A stretch of DNA of 60,156 bases from a virus. Below, one piece after another: positions 9,247 through 54,929 of this stretch. A program made the position numbers and the translations under genes. The notes below the pieces were generated by a model that was not told the DNA's origin, ran no database searches, and saw nothing but the letters and a program-made list of their open reading frames with translations. The stretch is from the IMG/VR virus record IMGVR_UViG_3300010398_000003, positions 1-60,156 of that record. The stretch is one strand, 5' to 3'. Position 1 is the stretch's first letter, and every line of letters starts with the position of its first letter.

Positions 9247-11289
9247 GTGTCGACCCTCACCGCGACGGCGGACCCGGCAAACTCCTTCATCCGTCTTGAC
9301 CTGGACTATTCGGACGTGCTGGCCACGCATGCCCGGATCACCCGGACCAACGCTGACGGTACCCAGGTGGACGTGCGGCCGAACGCGTTCGCGCGTACGT
9401 TGACCACGACGCCCGCCAACACCAATCAGACGTTTGAGGGTCTGGGCACCGGGTCGGTCCAGGGCTGGTTCAACACGGGCGGCACGGTCGCCCGTGCCGC
9501 CGACCAGACGCACGTCCACAGTGGACTATGGGCGATGATGCTCACACCGAACGGGGTGGCCGCGACGCCGTTCGTAGAGTCCGACAAAATCGCGGTCACG
9601 CCGAGCCAGCAGGTCCAGGGTGCCGCGTGGCTCTACAACGTCGCCGGCTACTCCACCGGGATGCGACTGGGCATTAACTGGTACGACGCGGCCAGTAACT
9701 TCCTGTCCACCTCGTTCCTGTACCCCGGCAGTACCGGGGCCGCGCTGCCGGCCGCGACGTTCACCGCGTATGGCTCGGCGCAGACCGGCATCTATCCCCA
9801 GGCGCCGGCCGGCGCCTTCCAGGCGAGTCTTTCGATCAACTATCTGGGGACGCCGTCGGGCGCCGTCGTGGTGTGGGCCGACGATGCGCGAATCGGCCCG
9901 TACCCGTCGCCGGTGCCGCTGCCGACGGTCGTTGCCCAGGTGCTCGTTGGCGGGAAGATCACGTTGTACGACACCGAGGCGTCCCTGGATCAGAACGTCA
10001 CCTACACTGCCATCGCCTACGCCGACCAGGGTCCGCTGACCAGCGGAAGCCAGACCTACGACCAGGGCCCTGTCATCGGCTCGACCCTGACCGCACAGAC
10101 GACGCTCCTCAGCCAAGGCACCATGTGGCTGAAGGACCCGACGCGGCCGGCCAACTCGATCCGCGTCGGGTTCAACGCGCCCGGCGTCCCGCTGCGCGAG
10201 GCGGTGTCGGGCGTGACCGCTGTGTCCAGCCCGGCCGTGACGTTCCAGGGACTCGACGCCGAGAAGCTGGCCGGCCGGTCCTCCGCCTTCGACGTGAACA
10301 ACCGTAACCGGCCGGTAGCCGTGACGCGGTCCCGGTCTGACCCGTCCGGACAGCTGTTCCTGATCACTCGCACCCTCGCCGACCGGGACGCGCTGACCGC
10401 GTTGCTGCGCCCCGGCGGTCAGGTGCTCCTCCAAGTCCCACCCGTCTACGGAGTGCCGGACTCCTACCTGCTGGTCGGCGATGAGACGATCTCTCGGATC
10501 GGCCAAGACCACCGGTACCCCCGGCGGGTCGTCGGGCTGCCCTACCAGGTGGTGGACCTGCCGCCCGGGCCGAGCCAGGGCGTGGCCGGCGCGCGCTGGT
10601 CCGATCTGTGCAACCGGTACGCTACGGCGGGCGCCCTCATGGCCGGCTCGGCTGGCCTGTGGGACACGTTCACCCGCACGCTGTCCTCCGCGTGGGGTAC
10701 GCCGGATACGGGCGCCGCGTACACGCTCAACGGCTCCGCCGCCGACTTCAGCACCAACGGCGCGTCCGGCGTCATCACCCTGTCGGCGACGAACCTGATC
10801 CGGTCCGCCACCTCGGGGAGCTTCACCAACTCGGACCTGTACGGGGAGTGGACGGTACCGGCTATCGCGGTAGGCGCGGCGCTGTCCGCCGGCCTCGTCA
10901 CTCGCTACACCGACGCGTTGAACTACTACCGGCTGGTTATGGTGTACGGGACGAGCACGGCGGCCCCCACCCTCATCAAGCGGGTAGCCGGCGTGGAGAC
11001 CACCCTCGCCACCGGTACGGCGGTGGCGTATGTGGCCGGTCAGCGGTACCGGGGGCACCTCCAGATCTCTGGCACCGCCATCAAGGCGTCCATCTGGAGT
11101 AACACTGGCGAGCCGGCGGCGTTCCAGCTATCCGTGACCGACTCAGCGCTAGCCGGCCCCGGCAGCTGCGGTGCATTCGCTCTCGCCGCCACCGGTAACA
11201 CCAACGTCTCGCCGGCCTTCACCTTCGACAATCTGCTCGTGCCCGTGGCGCCCACCTGGGCGCAGGTCATGGCACGGGCGTTCGCGTAG
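9247..11289 (+). CDS. minor tail protein (distal tail protein-like with extra domains)
   Basis: GTG 9247 lies 3 nt after the tape measure stop, in frame within ORF 8752..11289. 680 aa. Assigned by its position directly after the tape measure gene. Confidence 0.7.
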   Translation: MSTLTATADPANSFIRLDLDYSDVLATHARITRTNADGTQVDVRPNAFARTLTTTPANTNQTFEGLGTGSVQGWFNTGGTVARAADQTHVHSGLWAMMLTPNGVAATPFVESDKIAVTPSQQVQGAAWLYNVAGYSTGMRLGINWYDAASNFLSTSFLYPGSTGAALPAATFTAYGSAQTGIYPQAPAGAFQASLSINYLGTPSGAVVVWADDARIGPYPSPVPLPTVVAQVLVGGKITLYDTEASLDQNVTYTAIAYADQGPLTSGSQTYDQGPVIGSTLTAQTTLLSQGTMWLKDPTRPANSIRVGFNAPGVPLREAVSGVTAVSSPAVTFQGLDAEKLAGRSSAFDVNNRNRPVAVTRSRSDPSGQLFLITRTLADRDALTALLRPGGQVLLQVPPVYGVPDSYLLVGDETISRIGQDHRYPRRVVGLPYQVVDLPPGPSQGVAGARWSDLCNRYATAGALMAGSAGLWDTFTRTLSSAWGTPDTGAAYTLNGSAADFSTNGASGVITLSATNLIRSATSGSFTNSDLYGEWTVPAIAVGAALSAGLVTRYTDALNYYRLVMVYGTSTAAPTLIKRVAGVETTLATGTAVAYVAGQRYRGHLQISGTAIKASIWSNTGEPAAFQLSVTDSALAGPGSCGAFALAATGNTNVSPAFTFDNLLVPVAPTWAQVMARAFA

Positions 11290-20715: not shown

Positions 20716-21191
20716 CGCCGCACCTCCACATCCAGCTCGGCGAGGATGGTCTCCACCCGGCCCCACCCGTCCACCCGGATGCCCCGGGTGGACGCGCGGT
20801 ACGCGTGGCCTGGTACGACTGCCATTGCCTGGGTCGTCCTCTGGTCGCTCTCCGGATGGACGAGCGTCACCGAGACGATGACCGGGGCCGCGAGCTGGGC
20901 CTTCAGTTGGCGGATCTTCTGCCTCAGCTCCTTGCGCGTGGGCCGGCGCCTCGGCGCGTCCGCCCCGTACTGGAGGCCGCCGCGCGTGACGCTGACCGGA
21001 GGCAGGAAGGCATCGGCGGGCGCGCACCATCCGCCGTCCGCGTGCACCGGCTCCTTTCGGATCTCCTCGTACCGCGTCAGAATCTTGACCAGGGTGTCGA
21101 CGACGAGGCTGCTTCGGCGCCTGCCGAAGATGAAGCCGACCGCCTCGTCCAGCATGTCGATCAACTCGGCCGGCACCTCGACGCTGATCAC
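20712..21191 (-). CDS. ribbon-helix-helix domain protein
   Basis: GTG 21191 overlaps the ERF stop after AGGAGGGG. The N-terminus VISVEVPAELIDMLDEAVGFIFGRRRSSLVVDTLVKIL fits a CopG/MetJ-type strand-helix-helix. Confidence 0.55.
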   Translation of the reverse strand: MISVEVPAELIDMLDEAVGFIFGRRRSSLVVDTLVKILTRYEEIRKEPVHADGGWCAPADAFLPPVSVTRGGLQYGADAPRRRPTRKELRQKIRQLKAQLAAPVIVSVTLVHPESDQRTTQAMAVVPGHAYRASTRGIRVDGWGRVETILAELDVEVRR

Positions 21192-22780
21192 TTCCCCTCC
21201 TTCAGGTAGAACCGACGGGCGGCCACCCCGGCGTAGGCGCGTTCGGCCAGCTTCGCATCCAGCTGGGGCTCGGCCTGCTGGCGGTCCTTGTTGACCAGCA
21301 GCGTGACGGCGTCCAGCTCCTCCATGGAGATGGCGGTCTCGGCCAGCCACGCCGCGAAGTTGAACAGGTTCAGGTGGACAGCCGGCAGACTACGCAGCAT
21401 CGCATCCAGCGCGGCGTGCTCGTCAGCGGACACCTCGCCGCGCTCGAACAGACCCAGCAGGTCGTCCATCAGGGCGGCGATCGACTTGCCATCGGTCAGC
21501 TCGGGCGAGCGGATCCGCGTCCGCGTGTCCAGATAGGCCACACTCGGCGTGCCGATCGTCGGAGGCCAGAACTCTGGGACCGGCTCGTCGTCGTAGTTCT
21601 CCATGGGCTCGTCCTGCTCGGGTAGCTCGTCCAGGGCCTCGGCGTTGTCCGCGTGCCCGGTACCGGGAAGCGGGCCCATCCTGGCCCGGTCCTCCTCGCG
21701 CTGGAGGGCACCCTGGCGCTCGGCCTGGACGGTGCGCAGCCGCTCGCCGGCCGCCGCGCTTACTCCGCCACCCTGAATGGCGTGGCTGATCCGCTTGTCC
21801 ACGTGGCGCAGGTCGTCGAACGTCCGGCACTCCACGATGGCCAGCTCCAGCTCCTCCGCCAGGGTGCCGTCGGCCGGCTTCCGGGTGGCCTCGGCGAGTA
21901 CCTGGCCGTGTCGGCTGTGCCGCTCAACGGGGCCGACGCCTTCGTGCGACCACGGCAACCGTGCCTCGCCGACCGCGCCCAAGGTCTTGTTCAGCGCTAC
22001 CCACTCGTCCCGGTTGCGCGGCGTCTCGATGATCTCGGCGAGCCGGGCGCCGAACCGGGCCGACATCTCCTCGGTGCGCCCCTCTGGCTCCATCCGCTCC
22101 CAGAACGCCGCCAGATCCTTCGGCTCGGCCCTGGCGATCCGGGCCTGGAAGTCACCCCGGTCGCGTTCCTCGCGCCGGCTCTCGGCCCGCTGGTGGCCCG
22201 CGCTGGCCGCGTCCGCGTCGTCGTCGTCCTCCGCCGGGGCGAGCCCCGTCACGGCCTGGAAGCAGTACCGCCGGGCATAGGTGATGTGCGAGCCGATCGT
22301 CTTCGGATCCGCCGTACCGGGTTTCGGCAGCGGCCAGAAGCCCCCATCCTCCTCGCCGGAGGTGTGTCGGAGGATGTAGGCGAGACCGAAACCCTCCGGC
22401 GTCATGGTCGGCTTGGCCGAGAAGCTTAGACCGTACCGGCCCAACATGCGCATGCCGACCCGGCTCACGTCGGCCAGGTTGGCGTACCGGTACCGGTAGC
22501 TGCGTTTGCCCTCCTTCGCCTCGATGTCCGCCTCGTCCGCCGCGATCACGTCGGGAAGCTGTGACTGGAACAGCGCCAGGGCGGCGGCGAGGGAGGCGGG
22601 GGACTCCGACAGCAGGACGCGGGGAGGGCCGGCTATCGCGCGCTTCAGCAGGTCAGCCAACTGCTCGTCTTCCGGCAGGCTGGCGGGATCGAGGACGACG
22701 GGGGTGGCGGGGCCGAACGTCGCGTCCAGCTCCTCTTCGGTGACCGGGATCTGGCGCCGGTCAGGTTGCGCTCGGGACAT
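21188..22780 (-). CDS. ERF-family single-strand annealing recombinase with long C-terminal extension
   Basis: YRYRYANLADVSRVGMRMLGRYGLSF and GSHITYARRYCFQAVTGLAPAEDDDD match the conserved ERF core. 530 aa. Confidence 0.8.
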   Translation of the reverse strand: MSRAQPDRRQIPVTEEELDATFGPATPVVLDPASLPEDEQLADLLKRAIAGPPRVLLSESPASLAAALALFQSQLPDVIAADEADIEAKEGKRSYRYRYANLADVSRVGMRMLGRYGLSFSAKPTMTPEGFGLAYILRHTSGEEDGGFWPLPKPGTADPKTIGSHITYARRYCFQAVTGLAPAEDDDDADAASAGHQRAESRREERDRGDFQARIARAEPKDLAAFWERMEPEGRTEEMSARFGARLAEIIETPRNRDEWVALNKTLGAVGEARLPWSHEGVGPVERHSRHGQVLAEATRKPADGTLAEELELAIVECRTFDDLRHVDKRISHAIQGGGVSAAAGERLRTVQAERQGALQREEDRARMGPLPGTGHADNAEALDELPEQDEPMENYDDEPVPEFWPPTIGTPSVAYLDTRTRIRSPELTDGKSIAALMDDLLGLFERGEVSADEHAALDAMLRSLPAVHLNLFNFAAWLAETAISMEELDAVTLLVNKDRQQAEPQLDAKLAERAYAGVAARRFYLKEGK

Positions 22781-23338: not shown

Positions 23339-23778
23339 GCGACCTGCCGTTCCAGGGCCTCCAGGGCACGCTGACGGGCTGCCTCGAACTCGGCCGCCTC
23401 GTCACCCACCAGGCGTGGTGACGCGGTGTCGGGCCGGCGGTGCAGCCGCTGCGGGTCACCCACCCGGCGCGCCAGCCCGGCGATCGCCTGACGGTACTCG
23501 GCGTTGGGTTCGGTGAACTCCCGCGTCCGACGCTCGATGGCCCGGCGCTCCCGGTCGGCGCGGGCCGCCCGGAACTCCAGAGCCCGGCGCCGGATGGAGG
23601 CCGGCAGGAGCTGGCCCTTCTCGTTCAGCCGGAAGTACTCGGCGACGGCTGCCTGGGCGTCCGCAACGTCGATGTTGCGGAACTGTTCCAACCAGACCTC
23701 GGCCGCGCCCTCGGGGAAGGGCCGGCGGTCCTGCGCTTCGATGTGGGCCAGCATGGCCTGGACTTCGCCGATGTTCAT
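23335..23778 (-). CDS. hypothetical helical protein
   Basis: 147-aa ORF, GTGA/ATGA-coupled on both sides. Arg/Glu/Ala-rich. Confidence 0.6.
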   Translation of the reverse strand: MNIGEVQAMLAHIEAQDRRPFPEGAAEVWLEQFRNIDVADAQAAVAEYFRLNEKGQLLPASIRRRALEFRAARADRERRAIERRTREFTEPNAEYRQAIAGLARRVGDPQRLHRRPDTASPRLVGDEAAEFEAARQRALEALERQVA

Positions 23779-24809
23779 GCCGTCACCTCCGGGACGGGTC
23801 CTTCGATCACCTCGGCCACGATCACGTCCGGGTCATTGTACCCAGACCCTCTACGATCGCGCAGGAGTGTTTCGTGGATTCCGTCCACCCTTGCCCAAAA
23901 CGTCTTCGCCTCGGGGGTACCCAGCCGGGGGATCTCGGTACCCTCCTGCTCGCACAGCTTGTCCGCGATGGCGTAGCGCTGGGCGTAGTGCGCATCCCGT
24001 TCACGCCTCTTCTCGGCCGCCGTCTTGAACTCCTGGCGGCCGGCCGGCGGGGCGGACACGGGGCGCCCGGCGCGCTGGATCTCGATGATCACGTTGTCCA
24101 GGAGCCCGGGGCGGCTCTCCTGATGGCGCTCCAGCATGAGCGCGAGTGCCTTCTTGACCGTCCGCTCGTCGAAACCCTGTCCCAGTAGGTCCTTGATCTT
24201 CGCGCCGTAGCGGCCGATGGCCTGCTTGGTCAACGTCACATGTTGTGACGCGCAGTAGTCGATCCAGTCGGCCACTACGGACCCCCCACTCGCCGGCTTG
24301 GGCTCCTGCTCCTCGGATGTCCCCCGGCCCTCGGTAGCCTCCGCGCCAGCGGAAGCTGGCGGCTTAGTCGTCTTCTGGTTGGTCTTCTTAGAGGTGTTCT
24401 TCTTAGTAGCGGATTCTCCGGCGCCGGATTTTCCGTCGCTGGTTTCACCTGCGGAAACGTCCTCTTCTTGCTGGTCAGCTCCAGGGACGGGTTTTCCGTC
24501 GCCGGACCATCCGTCGGTGGGCGCGGTCACCTCGTAGTCGAAACCGGCGGTGCGCCCGTGCTCGTCCCGTAACGGGAGGCGGCGCAGCACTCCGACCTCT
24601 TCCAGCTCGCGTAGCCCGGCGCGCACCGCGTCCCGGGAGTCCTTGCCCTCGGCGATGATCTGCTCGGTGGACAGGCTGTAGTCGGCCGCGTGGCTCATGA
24701 CGTAGGCGAGCAGACCCTTGGCCTTCCAGGTCAGGCGTGGGTCGCGGAGCATGGCGTTGGATATGATCGTGAACTCGTCGGCGGGCACCTTGCCTCGGCG
24801 GATCGCCAT
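23775..24809 (-). CDS. replication organiser / winged-helix DNA-binding protein
   Basis: FTIISNAMLRDPRLTWKAKGLLAYVMSH...STEQIIAEGKDSRDAVRAGLRELEEVGVLRR is a winged-helix initiator-type N-domain. It is followed by a low-complexity linker and a helical C-domain. The start is ATG 24809, or ATG 24881 further upstream. Confidence 0.6.
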   Translation of the reverse strand: MAIRRGKVPADEFTIISNAMLRDPRLTWKAKGLLAYVMSHAADYSLSTEQIIAEGKDSRDAVRAGLRELEEVGVLRRLPLRDEHGRTAGFDYEVTAPTDGWSGDGKPVPGADQQEEDVSAGETSDGKSGAGESATKKNTSKKTNQKTTKPPASAGAEATEGRGTSEEQEPKPASGGSVVADWIDYCASQHVTLTKQAIGRYGAKIKDLLGQGFDERTVKKALALMLERHQESRPGLLDNVIIEIQRAGRPVSAPPAGRQEFKTAAEKRRERDAHYAQRYAIADKLCEQEGTEIPRLGTPEAKTFWARVDGIHETLLRDRRGSGYNDPDVIVAEVIEGPVPEVTA

Positions 24810-29429: not shown

Positions 29430-29635
29430 ACAGGTCACGGGCCAGGCGACGCCTGTTTGCCTGGATGCGCTACGAGGCCCGATGCTGCCAGGTGGCCGGC
29501 GGGGCGGAGTATGCCCGCCCGCACTGGGGCTACGCGCGAGCCGGTGCGCCATTCTACCGAAACGAGGCCACGTTCCCGTATGGGTGGCATGTCCGGATGT
29601 GGTGGTACGCGGACGAAGTGGCGATCAACCGATGA
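29426..29635 (+). CDS. hypothetical small protein
   Basis: ATG 29426 overlaps the upstream stop (ATGA). 69 aa, Trp/Arg-rich. Confidence 0.5.
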   Translation: MNRSRARRRLFAWMRYEARCCQVAGGAEYARPHWGYARAGAPFYRNEATFPYGWHVRMWWYADEVAINR

Positions 29636-30012
29636 GCGGATCCGAGATCCGGCGCGGCCGGGCGGCCGGCCCGAAGGTCCACGAGGACGTGTTGCCTATC
29701 GACGTGCCGCCGGCCGCCGCCCCGCCGTGGCCGGTCAAGAACAAGCTGTGGGCTGGGATCTCCACCTGGACCACGTACCGGGGCAAGCACCAGCTCTGTC
29801 ACCCTTGCGTCCTCGTCGTCCACGAGCGCGGCATCCAGGCCGCCCCGCCTCCCGCGCCGGCCACCCAGAAGCGCAAAGGACCCAACGGCGAAACGCTGTG
29901 CTGTGGACCGCACGCGGCCGAATGGCAGCGGATGGACGCCGAGGCCGCAAGGGCACGAGCCGACCGCGTCAGGCGGGTCGCCGAGCGGTCCAAGACCCGG
30001 ACCTTCCGATAG
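29632..30012 (+). CDS. hypothetical protein with Cys/His pairs
   Basis: ATG 29632 overlaps the upstream stop (ATGA). 126 aa. Contains LCHPC...LCCGPH. Confidence 0.5.
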   Translation: MSGSEIRRGRAAGPKVHEDVLPIDVPPAAAPPWPVKNKLWAGISTWTTYRGKHQLCHPCVLVVHERGIQAAPPPAPATQKRKGPNGETLCCGPHAAEWQRMDAEAARARADRVRRVAERSKTRTFR

Positions 30013-30275
30013 CACGCGAGGGTTGCGATCTCGCCGTAAACCACGCTAGGCTTCCGGCAGGTTCGAACCGAGGGCGCACTGAGCCGACAAGGCGAGGGAC
30101 GCGTACCCCGGGGCCACCACCGGGGTTGCCCGTAAGGTGGCGGAGGGCAAGCCGATCCAAGAGGGTCTCGGTGAGAGACCTACCCGGGGGGGCTGCGGCG
30201 CCCGGCTTGCCGGGACAGATGGACGGCTTCGCAACCGTCCTGCCCACAGGATCTGCGAGGGATCCGGCACGAGGA

Positions 30276-30348
30276 GCGTCGAAGGTCGGGCGGAACCGAC
30301 CACCGCTGAAGCAGGCGGAGACGCAGGGTTCGACTCCCCGCTGACGCA
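30276..30348 (+). ncRNA. tRNA-like cloverleaf b (non-canonical anticodon arm)
   Basis: Acceptor 30276-82 / 30341-47: 6 of 7 pairs, one of them G-T. D arm GTCG / CGAC with an 8-nt GG loop. T arm CAGGG-TTCGACT-CCCCG with one mismatch. The central arm has only 4 bp and an 8-nt loop TGAAGCAG with no U33-type geometry. Confidence 0.4.
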
Positions 30349-30450
30349 CGGGAACGCTTGACGCCCAGGCTGTGGTGATCGTGGCGACGACACTGACGGC
30401 TGAAAGAGCAGGAACCCGGAGAGTTCGCAGCGCAAAGCGGCGGTCCGGGA

Positions 30451-30524
30451 CGCACGGAAGCTCCAGGGAGAGCGCCGAGGGTGGGTAACTCTCGGAGGCC
30501 GGGGTTCGAGTCCCTACCGTGCAC
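30451..30524 (+). ncRNA. tRNA-like cloverleaf c (extended central hairpin)
   Basis: Acceptor: 6 of 7 pairs. D arm GCTC-CAGGGA-GAGC. T arm CGGGG-TTCGAGT-CCCTA. The central arm CCGAG / CTCGG extends to 7-8 bp, with a loop of 5-7 nt that does not fit an anticodon loop. Confidence 0.4.
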
Positions 30525-30744
30525 GAGCGGCAACGCACGGGAAAGCCCCCAGGTCCGGGACGCCGGGCAGCCTGGTCGAGGCCGGTACCGGTGACACCAG
30601 CTCGGAGCCCACGTCGACGTCCGTGGGGTGTGTCCGGTCCACCACCGCGAGGCGGGTACCGCGTAGCGGATGCGCATGGGGGGACTGGCTTCGATGCCAC
30701 GGACATGCGGAGCGGGACAGCCCTAGCAGAGGCCCCCGCGCCAT

Positions 30745-30804
30745 GGGGCGGTAGCCGGCTGGGACCGGTACTCCGGAGTCCAGGTTCGAATCCTGGCCGC
30801 CCCT
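30745..30804 (+). ncRNA. 60-nt minimal tRNA-like element d
   Basis: Perfect 7-bp acceptor GGGGCGG / CCGCCCC. Perfect T arm CCAGG-TTCGAAT-CCTGG. D-like arm CCGG-CTGGGA-CCGG. The anticodon arm is replaced by the 10-nt palindrome ACTCCGGAGT. No encoded CCA. Confidence 0.5.
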
Positions 30805-31133
30805 CGTAGGACCGGCAGGCCGCGCTTCGGCGCGCGAGGTCTGGGGCTGGGGAATCTGCTCACCCATCCTCGGTAAGAACGCGGCGCGATACGGGCGAGG
30901 CCGCGCACGTCCGGCTAGGGATGAGGCCGGACGCGGAGAGGTCGAGCGGAGCGTCCTGCTGCTCGACCTCTCCACCCGGAGTTCCCGGGCTTGCCCGGGG
31001 GGACTTGCCGGCTGGACCAGATGCAACCGGTGGCCGGCGGACAGCGGCCCGTGATCTACAGGCTGCCGGCCGGCCGGTACCCCAGCGCGGGCATGGGTAT
31101 CGGCCTCGGACATCCACCTGGAGAGGAGTGGAG

Positions 31134-31586
31134 ATGGGGAAGCCCGTCACCCGCGAGAACGCCGTCAGGACGCAGGCCACCCTGCCGGACGAACTGTCGG
31201 GCCCCGGTCAACAGACTCCGCACGGACCCCAGGGCCCGAAGCGGCTCACCCGTGCCGACCGGCGCGCCTACGAGCGGATCCGTGCTCGGCGCAAGCTCCG
31301 TCCGCAGTACGCGGGCGAGACCGGCCGCCAGCGGCGGGAACGGTGGGAGCAGGAGCGACATCAGGAGTTGGCGCGCGCCGGCCACCGCCTCGGCGTCGGT
31401 GAGATGTTCACCGTGGGTGACCGGAAGCGGATCGTGATCGCGCTCAACCAGGAGGCCGCCGAACGGGCTGGGTTGACCAACGCCCAGTGGGCCTGCATGA
31501 ACCGGAAGCAGCGGGCCGAGACGCTCGATCGGGTACGCCACGAGGCCCTGTCCGAGTACATCGCGGCCACCGGGAGCACCTGGTGA
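31134..31586 (+). CDS. hypothetical basic protein
   Basis: ATG 31134 after GGAGAGGAGTGGAG, in frame within ORF 30921..31586. 150 aa, Arg/Glu-rich and helical. Confidence 0.6.
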   Translation: MGKPVTRENAVRTQATLPDELSGPGQQTPHGPQGPKRLTRADRRAYERIRARRKLRPQYAGETGRQRRERWEQERHQELARAGHRLGVGEMFTVGDRKRIVIALNQEAAERAGLTNAQWACMNRKQRAETLDRVRHEALSEYIAATGSTW

Positions 31587-31804
31587 GGATCCTTCACTAC
31601 CCGAGCCCGCCCGACGTGGGCACCATCGTCGGCCCTGGCCTGGATGGCCGGTGGTGGATGGTCGTTGGTCAGGACGGGCAGGACACCCAGCTGGAACAGG
31701 CCGGCTTCTGGTCCCTCATGGACGCGCCGCTGGCCATCACCGCGCCGCGTTCGATGACCGAGTTCGACTACCACGCGATGCGTTCGAGGAGGAGGTTCCG
31801 GTGA
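31583..31804 (+). CDS. hypothetical small protein
   Basis: GTG 31583 overlaps the upstream stop (GTGA). 73 aa. Confidence 0.5.
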   Translation: MRILHYPSPPDVGTIVGPGLDGRWWMVVGQDGQDTQLEQAGFWSLMDAPLAITAPRSMTEFDYHAMRSRRRFR

Positions 31805-32424
31805 GGTACTGGTACGACTTCGAGTTCCTGGAGGACGGCCGGACCATCGACCCGATCTCCGTCGGCGTGGTCGCGGAGGACGGCCGCGAGTATTACGCGG
31901 TGTGGGACAACATCAACGACGAGCCGCTGTACTCACGCATCTGCGAGCATCGCTGGCTGGTGAAGAACGTGGTGCCGCACCTGCCGCTCGTACCGCAGCC
32001 GGACGGTGAGCTGGTCCACCTGGAAGGCGCACAGCGGAAGGTCCTCGGCGCCACGGTGCCCTACTACTACGAGAAGACCCGATGGGCGCTGGACATGGAC
32101 AGCACGGTCGTCAAGCCGCGCCGGCTGATCCGCGCCGAGCTGCGGGGGTTCTTCCTGGCCGACGAGGAGCCGGAGCTGTGGGCGTGGTACGCGGCCTACG
32201 ACCACGTGGCGCTCGCCCAGCTCTGGCGGCCGATGGCCGATCTCCCGGCCAACCTGCCGATGTATACGAACGATCTACGGCAGACGGTCCGCCAGGTAGG
32301 CATCCGTGAGCAGGACCTCCCGACCCTCCCGCCCGGCGCCGCGCACCACCCGCTTTCCGACGCCCACAACCTGCGGGATCGGTTCTACTACGTCGCCGAG
32401 TACTGCGACGGGCGACAGTTGTGA
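31801..32424 (+). CDS. DEDDh 3'-5' exonuclease (DnaQ-like fold)
   Basis: GTG 31801 overlaps the upstream stop. YDFEFLEDGRTIDPISVGVVAEDGREYYAV is Exo I. WAWYAAYDHVAL is Exo II. HHPLSDAHNL is Exo III of the H-x4-D type. Confidence 0.75.
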   Translation: MRYWYDFEFLEDGRTIDPISVGVVAEDGREYYAVWDNINDEPLYSRICEHRWLVKNVVPHLPLVPQPDGELVHLEGAQRKVLGATVPYYYEKTRWALDMDSTVVKPRRLIRAELRGFFLADEEPELWAWYAAYDHVALAQLWRPMADLPANLPMYTNDLRQTVRQVGIREQDLPTLPPGAAHHPLSDAHNLRDRFYYVAEYCDGRQL

Positions 32425-45377: not shown

Positions 45378-46267
45378 CGCAGCCCCAGACGCAGCAACTC
45401 CCGGCCCAGCCTCAGGAGCATCCGGTCGCGGCCACCGTCACCACCGCCGTGGCGCTCGACGCGATCCGGCGCGGCCTGCCCGACCCGTTCCTGCCACTGC
45501 GATGGGCCCGGCTCGCTAGCGTCGTGCGGGCGGAACGGCGTGTGCTCGGCCAGTACCGCGCCGCGATCGCCGACTGGACGCCGGCCGTGGCCCGGCGTGT
45601 CGTCCAGCATGGTGCCATCGATCCGCATGCCGTCCGGTTCGCCGCCCGGGGATTCGAGACCGCCGCCCGGCCGATCGTAGAGATCGAGCTGCGCGAGGTG
45701 TTCGAGACTGCCTTTCGCGAGGCCAGCGAGGCCGACTGGACGCCGGACGCTGACGCCTACCTGAAGCGGTACCTGGACGGTGCCTGGAACCGGCTGCGCG
45801 CCACCCCTGACCGCGTCTACAGCCTGATCACGCGCGAGGTGGCAACCGCCAGCCGCAACGGAGACGACATGGACACTCTGGCCGCCAAGATCGATGGCTT
45901 GTTCGCCGAGCACGACGTACCTACCTGGACGAACCGGGGGCTCACCGTGGCCCGCACCGAGGCCATCTCCGCGCACAACGCCGGCAACTTCGCCTCCTAC
46001 GTGGCCATGGCGAAGCAGGACGGCGGCGCCTGGGACAAGGTCTGGCTCGCCACCGAAGACGAGCGGACGCGGCCCACGCACGTGCGCGCCGACCTCCAGC
46101 GGGTGCCACTGCACGCCCCGTTCACCGTCGGCGGATTCCCCGGCATGTTCCCCGGCGACCCGACGCTACCCGCCCGGGAAGTGATCAACTGCCGGTGCGC
46201 GCCGCTCGCGGTCCGGGCCGGCGAGAAGATCGACCTGTCGCACCGCCAGTTCAAGGAGGCCGCGTGA
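45374..46267 (+). CDS. MuF-like (SPP1 gp7 family) head morphogenesis protein
   Basis: GTG 45374 overlaps the portal stop. GLTVARTEAISAHNAGNF...ATEDERTRPTHVRADLQRVPL...VINCRCAP is the Phage_Mu_F signature. Confidence 0.85.
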   Translation: MTQPQTQQLPAQPQEHPVAATVTTAVALDAIRRGLPDPFLPLRWARLASVVRAERRVLGQYRAAIADWTPAVARRVVQHGAIDPHAVRFAARGFETAARPIVEIELREVFETAFREASEADWTPDADAYLKRYLDGAWNRLRATPDRVYSLITREVATASRNGDDMDTLAAKIDGLFAEHDVPTWTNRGLTVARTEAISAHNAGNFASYVAMAKQDGGAWDKVWLATEDERTRPTHVRADLQRVPLHAPFTVGGFPGMFPGDPTLPAREVINCRCAPLAVRAGEKIDLSHRQFKEAA

Positions 46268-49200
46268 CCGCGTCGCTTGACCTCTACGCGCTCACCGCGC
46301 ACACGCCGGAGGGGTCGCGGGTGGTACTCGACCTGTACGCGGTCGGGGCGCAGGCCGGCGCGCTGCTCGCTGCCACCGTCCCCGTCGTCCAGCTGGACGA
46401 GACCGACCTGTACGGGCTCGACGTCGACAACTGGCTGTACGGGCTCGTCCACTTCGAGCACCAGGGCTGCGAGACCGGTGAGTACTGCCGTAACCCCCTG
46501 CATCCGGGTCCCTGCAAGGGCTGGAAGCACATGCTGCACAGCGTGGCGCCCGGCGCGTACCACGCCTACGAGCAGCAGAGGGTCGCGAAGCTGAACGAGG
46601 CGCGCCAGGCTCGGATAGCGGAGCTGAAGGCCGCCGGCAAGGCGGTCCCGAAGCATCTGCTGAAGCCGATCACCTACCAGCAGGTGCCCACCGCGCCGGC
46701 CGGGATCCCGTTCAAGCCACCCACTCCGAAGGAAGCCGAGGCGGCCCTCCCGACTACCGCGAAGGAGATCGCCCAGAAGATCGCGATGAAGCATGCTGAC
46801 ATCGCAGCCGCCCAGGCCAAGGCGAAGAAGGCGCTCCCCGGCCAGGGCGCGGCGGGATTCGCCACTCCGAAGGATGTCGATACCTACCTGCACGACTTCG
46901 AAGCGGACCCCAACCTCGCGGCGATGCCGGCGCTGAGCAAGGCCGTGTACAGCAAAAAGCTAGCCCAGATTGTCGATGACCCCAAGGCCACGCCCGAGCA
47001 GGTGGCGAAGGCCAAAGCGATCCTGGAGAAGATGGGCGCACCGAAGGCTGCTCCGCCTGTCGGGTCGTCGGCCAGCAAGGCCGCGAAGCTTGCAGCCGGT
47101 CAGGCCGGCAGCGTGATGATGCATAATGCCAAGCTCGGGCCGCCTGACAAGCCGATCATCCAGGCCGCCCTGGAGGCGCTGCACGATCACTCGAAGACGC
47201 CGGCCGCGCGCCTGGCCGCGTATGGCAGCCTGGAGCCGAAGCACGTTCAGGCCCTACCGCCGGACGTGGCCGAGGGGATCAGGAAGGATCTTGAGCACCT
47301 GGCGGGTGGTGGGTCCCACCTGGGCGGTGCGTCTATCGGGGCTAAGGCGGCCGATATCCACGGCAAGCTGTTCCCGCCGACCGCCGGGCCGGCCGGGAAG
47401 GTGTCGGGACCGCTCGCGCATCCGGACATGATGGCTGTGTCTGACCTGGCCAAGATGCCTAACGTCAGCCCCGCCCAGTTGGCGAAGGCGTTGGAGAAGC
47501 CTGGGGTGTCGAAGACGGAGCTGGATAAGCTACCGAATCCCACCAAGTTCAAGATCATGGATGCCATCCAGGCGGCGTACCAGAAGGAGCCGGCAGGTAC
47601 ATCCGATGGCTCGACCCTGGCATATATGCACGCGAAGCTGTTCGGGGAGCTGCCGCCGGCCAAGCTGCCTGCTCAGCGGGTGCAGTCCTCGGTCTCTGGT
47701 GGTGAGCCACACCCGGACATGGCGCATGCGCTGGAGATGTTGGCGGATTACCCGTCCCTCACCAAGGGGATCAATGCCCTAGATAAGACCACTATCACGA
47801 AGGCCGAGTATGCCAAGCTGGCCCCCGAGGATCAGCAGCTGATCAAGGATTTCCTGGCTGAGCACATCGGTGATGCGCCGGCCAGCGTCGATCACCTCGC
47901 CTACAAGCTGGGTATCGATAAGCTTGACTTGATCACGCCGACGGGCGAGAAGCCCAAGGTGGGCGCGGCCCAGGCCGCTCTGGCGGCGATCGACGCTGGT
48001 AAGCCGATGCTATCCAAGATCAAGAAGATCACGCCAGCTGAGTACGAGGCCCTTTCGGGAGCCGACCAGAAGAAGATCCACGACGTGCTGAAGGAGGAAC
48101 ACGACGCGGGGCACCCGAAGGTCGCCGCCGAGATTGCGGCCGGGCTGGGCCCGAAGGCGGTCATGAACCACACGCTGGCCGTGACCGGGTACACGCCGAC
48201 GAAGCGGGCGGCCCCCGGTGAGCCACACCCCGCGCTCCTCGACGCCCTGTTGTCGCTGAAGTCGAACAGTTCCAAGTCGATGGCGCTCAGCCACCTGGAC
48301 GACCCAGGCGTGACGGCGGCGCAGTTCGATGCGCTGCCGGAGGATGACCGTCAGCAGATCATGGACTTCCTCCACGAGGCAGCCCAGGCTAAGGGGCCGG
48401 CGACCAAGGCGAAGGCGAAGACTGTCGCGGCGAAGCTCGGCATCTCGTTGGCCGGCGAGGAGCCGGTACACGAGCGACCGTCGTCAACCAAGGGCGCGGC
48501 CAAGGTGGGTGGCGACGAGCTACTCCCCGGTTCGCCGGCGCATGTGATAGCCGCCCACGCTCTGGCCACCGGACTGACCTACGGCACCGCAACGAAGAAG
48601 CTGGCCGCCTACGGCAAGCTGTCCGCCGAGGAGTTCCACTCCCTGCCCGAGAACGCCCAGAAGGCCATCGTCTCCGACCTGAAGCAGGCCCATGACAAGT
48701 TCCTGGACCCGAAGAAGAAGAACCAGGTGCTGAACCTGCTGGAGAAGCTGAAGACCTCCGAGGCGATCCTGGAGACCCCGTCCGGTGGCGTCACCCCGCA
48801 GGGGAAGATGATCGCCAAGGCGCACGCGGCGATCCTGCCGCTCCTCGGCAACATGGCCGCACCGGTCACTCAGCATGAGCTGGAGCAGAACTACAGCAGT
48901 CCCGGGGCCAGTCTGCCTGACGAGGCGATGGCCCTCGCCAACGCCTGGTACGCCCATCACGTCCTCGATGGCGGCGTCGGTACCGCGCTCAGCCCGGACG
49001 ATCACGCCAAGGTGCTCCAGAAGGCCGAGGACGAGATCCTGCACATGCTCCAGACGGGCACGACGAAGCCGCCCAGCGACGGCGTCCTGGAGAACGCCGA
49101 CATCGCCGACAAGAACCTGCACGGCGCCAATAAGGCGGCCATGAAGGCGTCCCTCCTGAAGCAGGCGGCGAACAAGCAGACTGGGGCCGGCGGTAGCAGC

Positions 49201-50238
49201 CACGGGGGCGGCACTGCCGCGAAGGTCGAGGAGGCGGCGAAGAGCGCCGGGGTGCCCAAGGCTGTCAAGGACGAGGTGCTGGGCGCATTCAAGATGCACA
49301 CCCAGGGTGCCCAGCTGAAGGACCCGCCCGAGCAGGCGTACCAGGCGCTGCTGAACGTGGCGGCGGCGGCCAGTAAGAAGCCGGGCTGGCCCGACCTGTC
49401 GCTGCGCCAGATCATGCAGATCATCGACGAGCAGCACGCCAAGAACCTGGGCGTCACGAATCAGGGCCTGCTCGAACAGAAGATGGTCACCTGGCTCGGC
49501 ACTGCCGAGGGCAAAGCGGCGGCTGCCAACATGAAGCCGGACGCTGCGACGGTCAAGAAGCTGACCGGCGGCGTCGAGCTGCCCAAGGGCGTCAAGCTGA
49601 AGGCCGGCCAGAAGGTTCAGAACGTTGGCGGTCCCGGCGGGTACAAGAAGACCGACGGGCCGTTCCATGGCTACACCTCGGACCAGGCCATCGCCGAGCG
49701 CGACGCCTACCAGGCGCAGACCGGTCAGAAGTGGACCAAGGCTCAGCACGACGCCCTGTATTCCTACACGTACGCATCCGGCTCGATGAACAACTACCTG
49801 CGCAACGAGGCCGGCGCAGACACCTCGACCAAACAGAAGATTATCGATGCCCAGTCGGCGATGCAGCCGCTCCAGCACGACCATCTGCTCGGGCGCGGCA
49901 CCGGGTGGAGCGCGGTGCCGCCCGAGTTCCGGGGCTGGCCCGAAGCGCAGGGAATGGTCGGTAAGACCATCTCCGACCCGGCGTTCCTGTCCACGTCGGT
50001 AACTGGATCGCATCACGGCTTTTCTGGCCACGTGGTGTGGATCATCGAAGCGCCCGCCGGCACGATGGGCGCGTTCGTGGATGATTTCAGCAAGTTCCAT
50101 GGAGAGGCGGAGATGCTGCTCGCCGCCGGGACCCAGCTGAAGATCCTGGGTGTCGAGCAGTACGGCGATGGCATCCGCGTCCGGGCGCGCGTCGTATCTG
50201 GCTCGAAGACGGCGATCTCGACGGGGAAGAAGATATGA
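46264..50238 (+). CDS. giant virion-module protein with C-terminal R-S-ExE ADP-ribosyltransferase domain
   Basis: GTG 46264 overlaps the MuF stop (GTGA). 1,324 aa. ART triad: LLGRG (Arg codon 49894-49896), FLSTS (49990-49998), GEAEM (50104-50112). The ART domain spans roughly 49672-50199. There are six degenerate internal repeats. Confidence 0.85.
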   Translation: MTASLDLYALTAHTPEGSRVVLDLYAVGAQAGALLAATVPVVQLDETDLYGLDVDNWLYGLVHFEHQGCETGEYCRNPLHPGPCKGWKHMLHSVAPGAYHAYEQQRVAKLNEARQARIAELKAAGKAVPKHLLKPITYQQVPTAPAGIPFKPPTPKEAEAALPTTAKEIAQKIAMKHADIAAAQAKAKKALPGQGAAGFATPKDVDTYLHDFEADPNLAAMPALSKAVYSKKLAQIVDDPKATPEQVAKAKAILEKMGAPKAAPPVGSSASKAAKLAAGQAGSVMMHNAKLGPPDKPIIQAALEALHDHSKTPAARLAAYGSLEPKHVQALPPDVAEGIRKDLEHLAGGGSHLGGASIGAKAADIHGKLFPPTAGPAGKVSGPLAHPDMMAVSDLAKMPNVSPAQLAKALEKPGVSKTELDKLPNPTKFKIMDAIQAAYQKEPAGTSDGSTLAYMHAKLFGELPPAKLPAQRVQSSVSGGEPHPDMAHALEMLADYPSLTKGINALDKTTITKAEYAKLAPEDQQLIKDFLAEHIGDAPASVDHLAYKLGIDKLDLITPTGEKPKVGAAQAALAAIDAGKPMLSKIKKITPAEYEALSGADQKKIHDVLKEEHDAGHPKVAAEIAAGLGPKAVMNHTLAVTGYTPTKRAAPGEPHPALLDALLSLKSNSSKSMALSHLDDPGVTAAQFDALPEDDRQQIMDFLHEAAQAKGPATKAKAKTVAAKLGISLAGEEPVHERPSSTKGAAKVGGDELLPGSPAHVIAAHALATGLTYGTATKKLAAYGKLSAEEFHSLPENAQKAIVSDLKQAHDKFLDPKKKNQVLNLLEKLKTSEAILETPSGGVTPQGKMIAKAHAAILPLLGNMAAPVTQHELEQNYSSPGASLPDEAMALANAWYAHHVLDGGVGTALSPDDHAKVLQKAEDEILHMLQTGTTKPPSDGVLENADIADKNLHGANKAAMKASLLKQAANKQTGAGGSSHGGGTAAKVEEAAKSAGVPKAVKDEVLGAFKMHTQGAQLKDPPEQAYQALLNVAAAASKKPGWPDLSLRQIMQIIDEQHAKNLGVTNQGLLEQKMVTWLGTAEGKAAAANMKPDAATVKKLTGGVELPKGVKLKAGQKVQNVGGPGGYKKTDGPFHGYTSDQAIAERDAYQAQTGQKWTKAQHDALYSYTYASGSMNNYLRNEAGADTSTKQKIIDAQSAMQPLQHDHLLGRGTGWSAVPPEFRGWPEAQGMVGKTISDPAFLSTSVTGSHHGFSGHVVWIIEAPAGTMGAFVDDFSKFHGEAEMLLAAGTQLKILGVEQYGDGIRVRARVVSGSKTAISTGKKI
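47140..48702 (+). repeat. six tandem degenerate protein repeats (84-104 aa units) inside the giant gene
   Basis: Each unit has (G)EPHPxxxxALxxL followed by (S/T)xxE(F/Y)xxLPxxxxxxIxxxLxxxH. Examples: TPAARLAAYGSLEPKHVQALPPDVAEGIRKDLEH, KKLAAYGKLSAEEFHSLPENAQKAIVSDLKQAH, ITKAEYAKLAPEDQQLIKDFLAEH, VTAAQFDALPEDDRQQIMDFLHE. Confidence 0.7.
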
Positions 50239-53585: not shown

Positions 53586-53864
53586 TCAGGCGGACGCGCG
53601 GCGGCACGGTCGCGTACCGCAGTGCGCGCAGAAGCCGGTCAGGCTAGCTGGCTCTGTCAGCTCGTACATCCCATCTGGGATGTGCTCCGAGTACCGGGAC
53701 GGCGATTCACGGGGGCTTCCGTCCCGGTCAAGGTAGTAGTTCCCGCTGTGAAGGCGCAGCACGGTGATCCCACGTGCGCGGGATCGCGTCACGTCCCCGT
53801 CGATCACTGTCGCGAGCCCGGCGGCGATTCGGACTAGGCTGCCATTCGGTGGGCGGTCCTTCAC
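53586..53864 (-). CDS. hypothetical protein, last gene of the island
   Basis: GTG 53864 overlaps the glycohydrolase stop (GTGA), in frame within ORF 53586..54071. 92 aa. C-terminal CAHCGTRPC. Confidence 0.5.
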   Translation of the reverse strand: MKDRPPNGSLVRIAAGLATVIDGDVTRSRARGITVLRLHSGNYYLDRDGSPRESPSRYSEHIPDGMYELTEPASLTGFCAHCGTRPCRRASA

Positions 53865-54856: not shown

Positions 54857-54929
54857 CTCGGTCTCCTCTCCTGAGACTCCAGTGCGGCGCCCGGTCCACC
54901 CCTCCGGGACCGGGCGCCGCACAAGGGCG

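Follow-up and report, generated by a model that had tools for sequence, protein, structure and literature searches.

Candidate non-decoding tRNA mimics in the tRNA island of a family of uncultivated phages

Introduction

Why phages carry transfer RNA (tRNA) genes is again an open question, for which most answers now proposed involve the evasion of host nucleases that cleave tRNAs. The locus considered here raises this question in a particular form. It lies in a 60,156-nt viral DNA (IMG/VR record IMGVR_UViG_3300010398_000003, positions 1 to 60,156; hereafter, at its full length, the window), in which three clustered modules, b, c and d, fold into cloverleaves that display the acceptor stem, D arm and T arm of a tRNA around a central arm devoid of a normal anticodon loop. 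Are such modules relics of tRNA genes, unusual tRNAs, signals within a longer transcript, or RNAs that function because they look like tRNAs and regardless of decoding? With a confidence somewhat better than even, we favour the last answer, i.e. that b, c, d and probably a fourth element, a, are functional non-decoding tRNA mimics carried in a phage tRNA island.

Anatomy of modules b, c and d

The initial annotation had described each module as an acceptor stem, a D-like arm and a T arm associated with an aberrant central arm. This description holds on the sequence, and the unconstrained minimum-energy folds of b and c are indeed cloverleaves. The parts of the three modules, all on the + strand, are as follows.

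30276-30348 (+): module b, tRNA-like cloverleaf (minimum-energy fold)
30276-30282/30341-30347: acceptor stem of b, GCGUCG(A)/(C)UGACGC, 6 bp plus an A7.C66 mismatch
30285-30300: D arm of b, GUCGG-GCGGAA-CCGAC
30303-30318: central arm of b, CCGC-UGAAGCAG-GCGG
30324-30340: T arm of b, CAGGG-UUCGACU-CCCCG, with an A.C mismatch (A50.C64)
30348: discriminator of b, A

30451-30524 (+): module c, c-class tRNA-like cloverleaf (minimum-energy fold)
30451-30457/30517-30523: acceptor stem of c, (C)GCACGG/CCGUGC(A), with a 1:72 C.A mismatch
30460-30473: D arm of c, GCUC-CAGGGA-GAGC
30475-30495: central 7-8-bp hairpin of c, CCGAGGG-UGGGUAA-CUCUCGG
30500-30516: T arm of c, CGGGG-UUCGAGU-CCCUA, with a 49:65 mismatch
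30524: 3' nucleotide of c, C

30745-30804 (+): module d, 60-nt mini tRNA-like RNA of the d class
30745-30751/30797-30803: acceptor stem of d, GGGGCGG/CCGCCCC, perfect
30754-30769: D arm of d, GCCGG-CUGGGA-CCGGU
30770-30779: palindromic mini-arm of d, ACUCCGGAGU
30780-30796: T arm of d, CCAGG-UUCGAAU-CCUGG, perfect
30804: discriminator of d, U

All three modules keep a 7-bp acceptor stem (seven layers, mismatches included) on a 5-bp T stem, a T loop of the GTTCRANYC type and a D arm with GG. The acceptor and T arms of d are flawless, as first reported, while b and c carry mismatches in both stems, and none of the three encodes CCA. The GG-containing D loops were also correctly described, with a common 6-nt form NNGGRA (GCGGAA, CAGGGA and CUGGGA); the D stems had been given as uniformly 4 bp and are in fact of 4-6 bp. 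At position 8, b and c have A whereas d has U (C in the homologue of d in the relative L007), and A14 is not evident. In the energy model of d, three copies of CCGG compete for pairing; a compensatory change in the D stem relative to L007 (CCGG/CCGG to CCGA/UCGG) selects the D-arm pairing among these three options.

The canonical anticodon arm (5 bp, 7-nt loop, U33 and a purine at position 37) is found in none of the three. The central arm of b has 4-5 bp with a 6-8-nt loop; a 7-nt loop can be drawn only if 2 of the 5 stem pairs are mismatched, and the stable fold has no U at the U33 position. The loop of c, UGGGUAA, has G33 and becomes GGGA in L007. In place of the anticodon stem-loop, b and c have a closed hairpin and d has a mini-arm of 10 nt. 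Aside from strained calls for b and c at relaxed settings (see below), the central-arm folds agree with the claim that the U33 plus 7-nt geometry is lacking, and, as they have no 7-nt anticodon loop, the modules would be unable to read codons.

Chance expectation and tRNA prediction

The T-loop sequence GGTTCGANTCC occurs three times in the 60 kb, always on the + strand and once each inside b, c and d, against an expectation of 0.19; three or more copies were obtained in none of 100 shuffled sequences. Likewise, three matches to an acceptor stem plus T arm within 600 nt of one strand occurred in none of 300 shuffles. The T-loop-anchored finder used here is too permissive by itself (about one match per shuffled window) and served only for clustering and for delimiting elements.

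Standard predictors return no canonical tRNA at this locus. ARAGORN with default parameters reports 0 tRNA and 0 transfer-messenger RNA (tmRNA) in the window, and no Rfam model matches b, c or d at gathering thresholds. The best scores in the Rfam tRNA clan are 13.8 bits for b, less than 5 for c and 19.3 for d, compared with the 29 bits required for RF00005; the score of d comes from the tRNA-Sec model (E 0.87), whose threshold is 47. Lowering the ARAGORN thresholds by 5% (-ps) leads to calls of tRNA-Phe(GAA) for b, with 2 mismatches in the 5 anticodon-stem pairs, and of tRNA-Thr(GGU) for c, with G33, while d is never called a standard tRNA. At these relaxed settings, ARAGORN also gives two matches inside coding regions of the window and about 0.4 match per shuffled window.

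Selection on the fold

The DUF932 protein encoded next to the modules has homologues of 40-59% identity on a set of metagenomic contigs of 55-63 kb. Eleven distinct genomes of this family were fetched, and labels such as L006 and L007 designate the loci of these relatives. Each module of the window was compared with its nearest homologue, over 64 modelled pairs in all.

b versus L006 11030-11102: 1 two-sided compensatory change, 2 one-sided compatible changes, 1 mismatch repaired, 0 pairs broken
c versus L007 11029-11099: 2 two-sided compensatory changes, 1 one-sided compatible change, 0 mismatches repaired, 0 pairs broken
d versus L007 11453-11512: 3 two-sided compensatory changes, 0 one-sided changes, 0 mismatches repaired, 0 pairs broken

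Globally, 17 paired positions are substituted, giving 6 compensatory changes, 3 wobble-compatible changes, 1 repaired mismatch and no broken pair. When the same substitutions are redistributed at random, 10.7 pairs are broken on average, and neither the absence of broken pairs nor 6 or more compensatory changes was obtained in 20,000 trials (P < 1/20,000, permutation). The aberrant central arms are common to the window and its L006 and L007 homologues: the 24 nt around the central arm of b are identical in L006, and the palindrome of d is identical in L007. This sharing indicates that the arms predate the split of the compared genomes. As the arms are older than this split and only pair-preserving changes have occurred since, the comparison indicates that selection for the fold continued after decoding was lost and excludes simple decay, in agreement with the initial doubt that ordinary tRNA decay could account for the modules.

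Across the family, the elements found at this place group into classes by their acceptor ends. The c class (seven members: module c of the window and elements in L007, L008, L012, L014, L054 and L056) has 92.5% of cells paired versus 65% in shuffles, with two-sided changes at 14 of its 21 pairs. Its covariation score is 0.785, versus 0.219 in shuffles (0 of 500 reached it) and at most 0.16 in controls in which the alignment was slid. The five outer pairs of the central stem all covary, and position 1:72 is unpaired in all seven members. The central loops (GGGUA/UGGGUAA, GGGA, CCAAA twice, CCCAA twice and GCAA) are typically of 4-5 nt, are usually closed by a C32-G38 pair and never carry U33.

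The d-class alignment comprises five members (module d of the window and elements in L007, L006, L052 and L012), and further members are found in L111 and L112. In this five-member alignment, all cells are paired (100%), with covariation in the D and T stems. Six of the seven members share an invariant acceptor, GGGGCGG/CCGCCCC, and the U-C-G that follows it, L012 being the exception, with one wobble-compatible change in the acceptor and A-C instead of U-C. Around this unchanged acceptor, the centre ranges from the 10-nt palindrome of the window up to inserts of about 40-50 nt that are branched. The family has one more class, which the window lacks, with the acceptor GACCGCC/GGCGGUU followed by A and a length of 79-97 nt; ARAGORN gives its homologues differing anticodons (Pro, Arg, Asn). 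What is common to every class is a 12-layer acceptor/T stack with its T loop, to which b, c and d add the GG D loop.

A tRNA island conserved across the family

The modules are located in a stretch of 1.1 kb (30013-31133) between two + strand genes (29632-30012 and 31134-31586). The surrounding genes are all on the same strand, and the stretch lies about 4.7 kb into a rightward operon. A protein-coding gap was considered and rejected: the G+C content at third codon positions (GC3) is 0.63-0.76 in every open reading frame (ORF) of the gap versus 0.87-0.97 in the neighbouring genes, and translated similarity to the relatives is limited to short fragments scattered over all six frames. Conservation of the gap therefore acts at the nucleic-acid level. 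The public gene call of a 245-aa ORF on the minus strand (29969-30706) is spurious, with a GC3 of 0.66, a frame that is not conserved and an unrelated equivalent in L011. A 38-codon ORF on the + strand, which ends at a TAA in the loop of c, was also discarded, since a 2-nt indel shifts its frame in L007.

Every fetched locus that extends far enough downstream displays the same gene order and, at the same place, a gene-free gap of 0.7-1.4 kb. These gaps carry from 1 to 6 elements with an acceptor stem and a T arm. That of L054 includes a canonical tRNA-Lys(CUU) with the loop CUCUUAA, and that of L111 includes two tRNA-Met and one tRNA-Arg, while other elements of these gaps pass the Rfam tRNA threshold at 39-50 bits despite their odd central arms. 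Since relatives hold canonical or Rfam-passing tRNA elements there, the gap is the tRNA island of an uncultivated family of high-GC phages of about 60 kb. This conserved island and its recurring classes with class-specific acceptors go beyond what had been noticed from the window alone. The gap of the window is a mosaic, module b and a 43-nt block (see below) being common to L006, and modules c and d and the spacers being common to L007.

In every element of the islands, whether canonical tRNA or mimic (e.g. at L054 8226-8299, at L111 5895-6354 and in b, c and d of the window), the discriminator is followed by C and then by G (for example A-C-G or U-C-G), and none of the island elements of the family encodes a full CCA. 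This N73-C-G context would make A the discriminator of the c class, with an acceptor of 6 bp, so that the register of the c class is ambiguous.

Other conserved parts of the gap

The three modules are not isolated, as there is at least one further tRNA-like element (30143-30248) and the spacers are themselves conserved and structured. The features concerned are the following.

30143-30248 (+): module a, fourth, longer tRNA-like element of 106 nt, with acceptor GAGGGCA/UGCCCAC, a conserved A2.A71 mismatch and two internal hairpins
30221-30240: T-arm-like hairpin of module a, GGACGG-CUUCGCAA-CCGUCC
30349-30450 (+): b-c spacer, structured, with the hairpin UCGU-GGCG-ACGA (30379-30390) within a longer helix
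30525-30744 (+): c-d spacer, structured, in which the trailer GAGCGGCAACGCACGG (30525-30540) pairs with CCGGUGACACCAGCUC (30588-30603)
30687-30698: conserved T-loop-like hairpin of the c-d spacer, GGC-UUCGAU-GCC
30013-30142 (+): conserved 5' part of the gap, with blocks kept in the window, L006, L007 and L008, and with a covarying hairpin CCCCGG-GGCCACCA-CCGGGG
30020-30030: block GGGUUGCGAUC of the 5' part
30058-30069: palindrome-containing CAGGUUCGAACC of the 5' part
30997-31039 (+): 43-nt block GGGGGGACUUGCCGGCUGGACCAGAUGCAACCGGUGGCCGGCG, which resembles the 5' half of a d-type element

The acceptor of module a covaries, being GAGGGCA/UGCCCAC in the window, GAGGGCG/CGCCCAC in L006 and GAGGACA/UGUCCAC in L007. 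Comparison of these sequences suggests that module a is probably a fourth non-decoding tRNA mimic; its case is weaker than that of b, c and d because its T loop is degenerate and three sequences only are available.

The spacers are about 96% identical to those of L007, whereas the modules are 87-88% identical. For example, the b-c spacer shows 95.8% identity over 71 nt compared with 87% for module c, and a 51-nt block of the c-d spacer is 96% identical in L007. RNAalifold proposes 27 pairs in the b-c spacer (window, L007 and L008), 6 of them with two-sided changes, and 58 pairs in the c-d spacer, 18 of them with two-sided changes (again for three sequences only). In the 5' part of the gap, for which four sequences were aligned, 37 pairs are proposed, 10 with two-sided changes. 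The spacers may thus be functional small RNAs themselves. Covarying local helices are found in every segment of the gap examined (3-4 alignable sequences), no single global fold being established.

The 43-nt block consists of a G-rich acceptor-like strand followed by a GCCGG/CCGGU stem with a loop starting with CUGG. It is 100% identical in L006 (11385-11427) and 94% identical in L008 (about 10342-10380), where one stem pair shows a compensatory change (CCGG/CCGG to GCGG/CCGC); neither a matching T arm nor a 3' acceptor strand was found for it. The block precedes the tRNA-like elements in L008 and follows them in the window. A long-range pairing of 10 bp with one bulge between GGUUGCGAUCU (about 30021-30031) and AGAUGCAACC (about 31021-31030) was considered and rejected, with no compensatory change in L006 or L008. 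The 5' block GGGUUGCGAUC is kept in four of five relatives, some of them without the 3' partner block.

Two conserved perfect 10-nt palindromes, GGTTCGAACC and ACTCCGGAGT, lie within 30058-30069 and 30770-30779. Palindromes of this length are not rare by chance, and what is notable here is that they are conserved; possible roles are dimerisation between RNAs and the binding of a dimeric protein. Two copies of the 11-mer GTCCGGGACGC are present, at 30443-30453 (leader and 5' acceptor strand of c) and 110 nt downstream at 30553-30563, and may have been left by the tandem duplication of a unit made of a module and its trailer. In the relatives, several elements are followed by a similar trailer, ACGAG..GCAACGCACGGGAAAG. 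Downstream of d are found a hairpin at 30818-30841, just after the module, and a strong G+C-rich hairpin of 16 bp (GGAGAGGTCGAGCGG...CTGCTCGACCTCTCC, 30935-30973). Both lack a U tract, and the Rfam matches that overlap them are all below threshold; these hairpins may represent more structured RNA or else factor-independent terminators of the kind found in actinobacteria.

Non-decoding tRNA mimics as the favoured explanation

How would such modules act if they are functional mimics? They would be transcribed from the + strand within the long rightward operon, their 5' ends would be cut by the host RNase P, RNase Z or exonucleases would cut after the discriminator, and the 3' end would be completed by the CCA-adding enzyme. 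The same cuts would split the 1.1-kb precursor into tRNA-shaped RNAs and conserved structured spacer RNAs, and the modules would exert their function as tRNA look-alikes, via the acceptor end and the elbow. Whereas the structures and the selection acting on them are shown by the comparisons above, transcription, processing, CCA-tailing and the later role are inferred. In the actinobacterium Mycobacterium smegmatis, RNase P cuts the tRNA-like module of YrlA, whose acceptor stem has 7 bp, and the module acquires CCA in vivo (PMC4201824). Excision in the manner of tRNAs is proposed on the grounds of this precedent and because the features used in maturation are kept; furthermore, the conserved and covarying spacers fit with a precursor cut into several RNAs. 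As to their origin, the modules derive from tRNA genes of phages.

As for the role of the excised RNAs, a decoy, a punctuation signal and a charged mimic are all possible. The roles first put forward (processing signals, decoys of the CCA-adding enzyme or of synthetases, and nuclease-insensitive mimics) are likewise hypotheses, to which the present evidence only gives different weights. The invariant acceptor of d, the open 1:72 position of c and the unchanged centres of b and d suggest recognition by a partner that reads specific sequences, for instance a synthetase, a nuclease or some other protein that binds tRNA.

Several points weigh against the mimic explanation. The phage is known only from metagenome assemblies, and each module of the window has one close homologue only. 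The short 6-nt D loops and the stem mismatches of b and c leave the elbow and recognition by RNase P as assumptions. RNase P requires no specific acceptor sequence, and processing alone accounts neither for the acceptor of d nor for position 1:72 of c. Neither a promoter nor a terminator was found by a scan for sigma-70 promoters and intrinsic terminators, a scan that is ill-suited to high-GC actinobacterial signals. Lastly, the class alignments were fitted manually to the proposed structure, and the pair counts are biased in favour of this structure, although both the slid controls and the independent pairwise test speak for a real covariation signal in the classes.

A broader version of the mimic explanation, considered tentative and rather unlikely, would make the whole gap one 'tRNA-mimic array' of look-alikes with fixed class-specific acceptor identities and of structured spacers. 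Such an array might act as a multivalent sponge, with host tRNA-binding defence or translation factors as targets, or as a large assembled RNA to which tRNA-like heads are covalently attached, by analogy with the tRNAs embedded in the linkers of GOLLD RNAs. The GGGGCGG/CCGCCCC plus U73 identity would then possibly be derived from tRNA-Trp, and the open 1:72 pair would be another of these identities.

If the modules are made and matured as predicted, their purpose cannot be codon supply. Selection has kept the half of the tRNA that is read by enzymes and used in maturation and discarded the half that reads codons, a pattern that recurs across a divergent phage family. If the prediction is true, the island would be a clear-cut case in which to study what phage 'tRNAs' do outside translation, be it as decoys, processing cassettes or charged carriers. 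In a literature search of incomplete coverage, conserved tRNA mimics that lack an anticodon were not found described for phage tRNA islands. Standard annotation misses such genes, default ARAGORN and Rfam being silent and a gene caller placing the false 245-aa ORF over them, and counts of what the tRNA islands of uncultivated actinophages contain are therefore probably too low. Covariance models for RNA family libraries could be derived from the c and d classes.

Alternative explanations

The alternative that survives best, unlikely as we consider it, is that the modules are decoys serving anti-defence or host takeover. Excised look-alikes would titrate host proteins that read the acceptor end and the elbow, such as VapC-type anticodon nucleases, toxins that modify aminoacyl-tRNAs, a synthetase or maturation enzymes, and, without a cleavable loop, they would be inert competitive inhibitors. 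Class-specific acceptor features are indeed conserved beyond the needs of folding (acceptor and U73 in six of seven members of the d class, 1:72 open in seven of seven members of the c class), and the central arm of b and the palindrome of d are identical between genomes whose stems have diverged. There are also leads towards tRNA-Trp. The T arm of d is identical to that of the tRNA-Trp of phage Steamy, this tRNA is the best of 12 reference tRNAs for all four d-type elements tested, and the c-class loops CCCCAAG/CCCAAAG resemble the loop of the tRNA-Trp of phage Rowa, CUCCAAA, with U33C and A38G. In mycobacteria, tRNA-Trp(CCA) is the target of several VapC toxins that cleave it (PMC5175351), and changes in the anticodon loops of phage tRNAs have been proposed to allow nuclease evasion (PMC10264068). 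However, the likeness to tRNA-Trp is weak (BLAST E 0.05-4) and provides a lead only: b matches no annotated tRNA, the c class gives mixed matches, and the 5' part of d-type elements is weakly like tRNA-Val, the likeness to tRNA-Trp being seen for the 3' half and the whole length. Furthermore, the known anticodon nucleases read the anticodon loop, so that a loop-less mimic may not bind them, and none of the scanned proteins of the window points to a partner.

It is also doubtful, and next in order, that the modules are pure processing punctuation, i.e. RNase P/RNase Z cassettes that free the spacer RNAs or that separate and stabilise the flanking mRNAs, after the pattern of mitochondrial tRNA punctuation or of the cut that yields mascRNA from MALAT1. 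The features read by RNase P and RNase Z are the only ones common to all classes, the central arms varying freely between them, and the same N73-C-G context follows every element, including the canonical tRNAs. Such cassettes would also fit with spacers that are structured and more conserved than the modules, and with modules exchanged mosaically between relatives (b with L006, c and d with L007). This explanation nevertheless gives no reason for the acceptor and discriminator of d, the open 1:72 of c or the conserved central arms of b and d, and one cassette would be enough to separate mRNAs, yet there are 3-6 per genome.

That the modules are unusual decoding tRNAs, b being a tRNA-Phe(GAA) or a frameshift/quadruplet decoder with an 8-nt loop and c a tRNA-Thr(GGU), is very improbable. 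The calls obtained with relaxed ARAGORN (C32 U33 GAA G37 for b), the canonical length of b and c (73-74 nt) and the identity of the central arm of b in L006 could be cited in its favour. However, the 7-nt loop of b costs 2 mismatches in 5 stem pairs and the stable fold lacks U33; in c, position 33 is G and only a GGGA tetraloop is left of the loop in L007; an anticodon arm is missing from d; scores in the Rfam tRNA clan do not exceed 19 bits versus the 29 needed; and the relaxed calls stand against a background of two matches inside coding regions and of matches in shuffled windows (about 0.4 each).

A DNA-level element, either an attachment site copying the 3' halves of host tRNAs or a replication origin or single-strand initiation signal with hairpins formed by the DNA itself, is hardly credible either. 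Phages often integrate into tRNA genes, and the large gene-free region, rich in repeats and palindromes (GGTTCGAACC and ACTCCGGAGT), is close to the genes of the replication initiator, ERF and DUF932. Against this, there is no integrase among the about 50 proteins scanned, the cloverleaves are complete with both acceptor strands and not just 3' halves, and the T-loop consensus and the one-sided, G.U-compatible changes on the + strand indicate RNA; compensatory T-stem differences between relatives would also be unexpected if identity with a host tRNA were the constraint.

Decaying pseudogenes, neutral relics of a former tRNA cluster, are the least probable of all: the real tRNAs in the island of some relatives, the stem mismatches of b and c and their failure with tRNA predictors would be expected from such relics, but not the arms common to L006 and L007, the 17 substituted paired positions with six two-sided changes and no broken pair, or the maintenance of the c and d classes in genomes so diverged that their DUF932 proteins share only 40-59% identity.

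Phage genome, host and relatives

The window is an essentially complete genome of a soil phage, of about 60 kb and with 68.6% G+C, seen in two assemblies of one metagenome sample (60,174 and 60,063 bp). Among its products are a large terminase, a major head protein, a GH25 lysin, DUF932, an ERF recombinase and a replication initiator, the genes of the last two being located as follows.

21188-22780: ERF
23775-24809: replication initiator

In DNA searches, neither the gap nor a 20-kb segment matched a cultured phage, and the identity of the terminase to those of cultured phages does not exceed 36%. Homologues of the DUF932 protein, with up to 37% identity, are found in Actinomycetota genomes, and the host is therefore probably an actinobacterium. 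The DUF932 neighbourhoods of 47 Actinomycetota genome loci include no comparable array. Exact-pattern scans of IMG/VR with the cores of b, c and d gave 0 matches, and scans of IMG/VR for close relatives with three neighbouring proteins gave nothing useful, L001 being a 10-residue chance match. A metagenome scan with the spacer 20-mer GTGGTGATCGTGGCGACGAC was discarded, as all 35 of its 35 matches are unrelated coding sequences for a VVIVATT-type peptide, which makes L015-L049 irrelevant.

Two genes downstream of the array, the phage encodes a DEDD 3'-5' exonuclease (31801-32424; Pfam Rv2179c-like, labelled 'RNase H' in PHROG). A counterpart lies downstream of the gap in most relatives and upstream of it in L112. 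It is the only candidate near the array for a protein that might act on such RNAs; trimming of their 3' ends is one possible role, though a plain DNA exonuclease is another. The phage also encodes a virion-associated protein of 1347 aa with a C-terminal ADP-ribosyltransferase toxin domain (46195-50238) and an ADP-ribosylglycohydrolase (53861-54922, minus strand); some ADP-ribosyltransferases act on structured RNAs. The scan of about 50 proteins of the window revealed no gene for tRNA modification, repair or ligation, nor for Ro60 or an integrase.

Comparison with known systems

In design, the modules come nearest to mascRNA-type RNAs, the tRNA-like domain of tmRNA, YrlA, plant-virus tRNA-like structures and the tRNAs embedded in GOLLD, and no covariance model of these systems reaches its threshold here. 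The tRNA-like structures at the 3' ends of plant RNA viruses (Tymo_tRNA-like, RF00233) also mimic the acceptor/T-arm half of a tRNA, and they are substrates of the CCA-adding enzyme and of synthetases. Unlike the modules, they are terminal on RNA genomes, have a pseudoknotted acceptor and belong to an unrelated biology; the match of RF00233 to b is weak (12.7 bits for a threshold of 40).

The tRNA-like domain of tmRNA likewise has an acceptor and a T arm and no anticodon. It is handled by RNase P and by the CCA-adding and aminoacylation machinery, and some actinophages encode a tmRNA. The modules differ from it by the lack of G3.U70 (b and d have G-C at 3:70, and c has C-G), of a tag frame and of a pseudoknot domain. 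No typical tag peptide before a stop was found in nine gaps and no Rfam tmRNA model matches. A tmRNA, including two-piece forms, was thus rejected, with no support from default ARAGORN or Rfam. Sub-threshold ARAGORN calls of a 'permuted tmRNA' in L011 (7285-7618) and L012 (7535-7875) have implausible tags (AGEGVDHQRAGQ and ARRQATATRGRRRRPPAGG) and no Rfam support, and are probably artefacts of neighbouring tRNA-like arms. RNase P RNA was also rejected as the identity of the gap, with no support from Rfam.

The YrlA bacterial Y RNAs are tRNA mimics found in bacteria and some phages. In contrast to the modules, which end in an acceptor stem, the ends of YrlA form a Ro60-binding stem at the place of the anticodon arm, and its gene lies by rsr/Ro60. 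No Ro60/TROVE protein was found among the about 50 proteins scanned, a set that does not include every small ORF, and no Rfam Y-RNA model matches.

GOLLD and ROOL are large structured RNAs of phages and prophages found at tRNA islands, to which a conserved and structured gap of about 1.1 kb with tRNA-like modules can be compared. GOLLD occurs in tRNA arrays of Mycobacterium, and its linker sometimes embeds tRNAs (PMC12286853). The covariance models of GOLLD and ROOL do not match 29900-31250, either at gathering thresholds or at E<=10.

In design, the mascRNA and menRNA of MALAT1 and NEAT1 (RF01684) are also like the modules, with a cloverleaf of about 60 nt, a stunted anticodon arm and a location inside a longer non-coding transcript. 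RNase P and RNase Z release them from this transcript by a cut that matures the flanking RNA as well, and the released RNAs receive a CCA tail. RF01684 is the sole non-tRNA model that matches modules repeatedly (14.0 bits for b, 15.3 for c and 24 for an element of L012), far below its threshold of 42.5. As these are vertebrate nuclear RNAs, the likeness is one of design only and not of homology.

In descent, the comparison is with phage tRNAs. Like the tRNA islands of actinophages, the gap is intergenic and located within an operon whose genes are on the same strand, and true tRNA-Lys, tRNA-Met and tRNA-Arg occupy the same slot in relatives. Anticodon loops of actinophage tRNA islands are known to depart from the host consensus, which has been read as an adaptation to tRNA-targeting defence (van den Berg et al. 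2023, PMC10264068). These tRNAs keep a 7-nt loop and still decode, whereas the loop of the modules is closed, shortened or deleted. Canonical neighbour tRNAs in the relatives score 44-50 bits with RF00005, compared with at most 19 for the modules, which lack the 5-bp anticodon stem and the 7-nt U33 loop and whose central arms vary in length within a homologous class. With phage tRNAs, the modules share the 7-bp acceptor, the GG D arm, the UUCGANU T loop, a CCA that is not encoded and the N73-C-G trailer.

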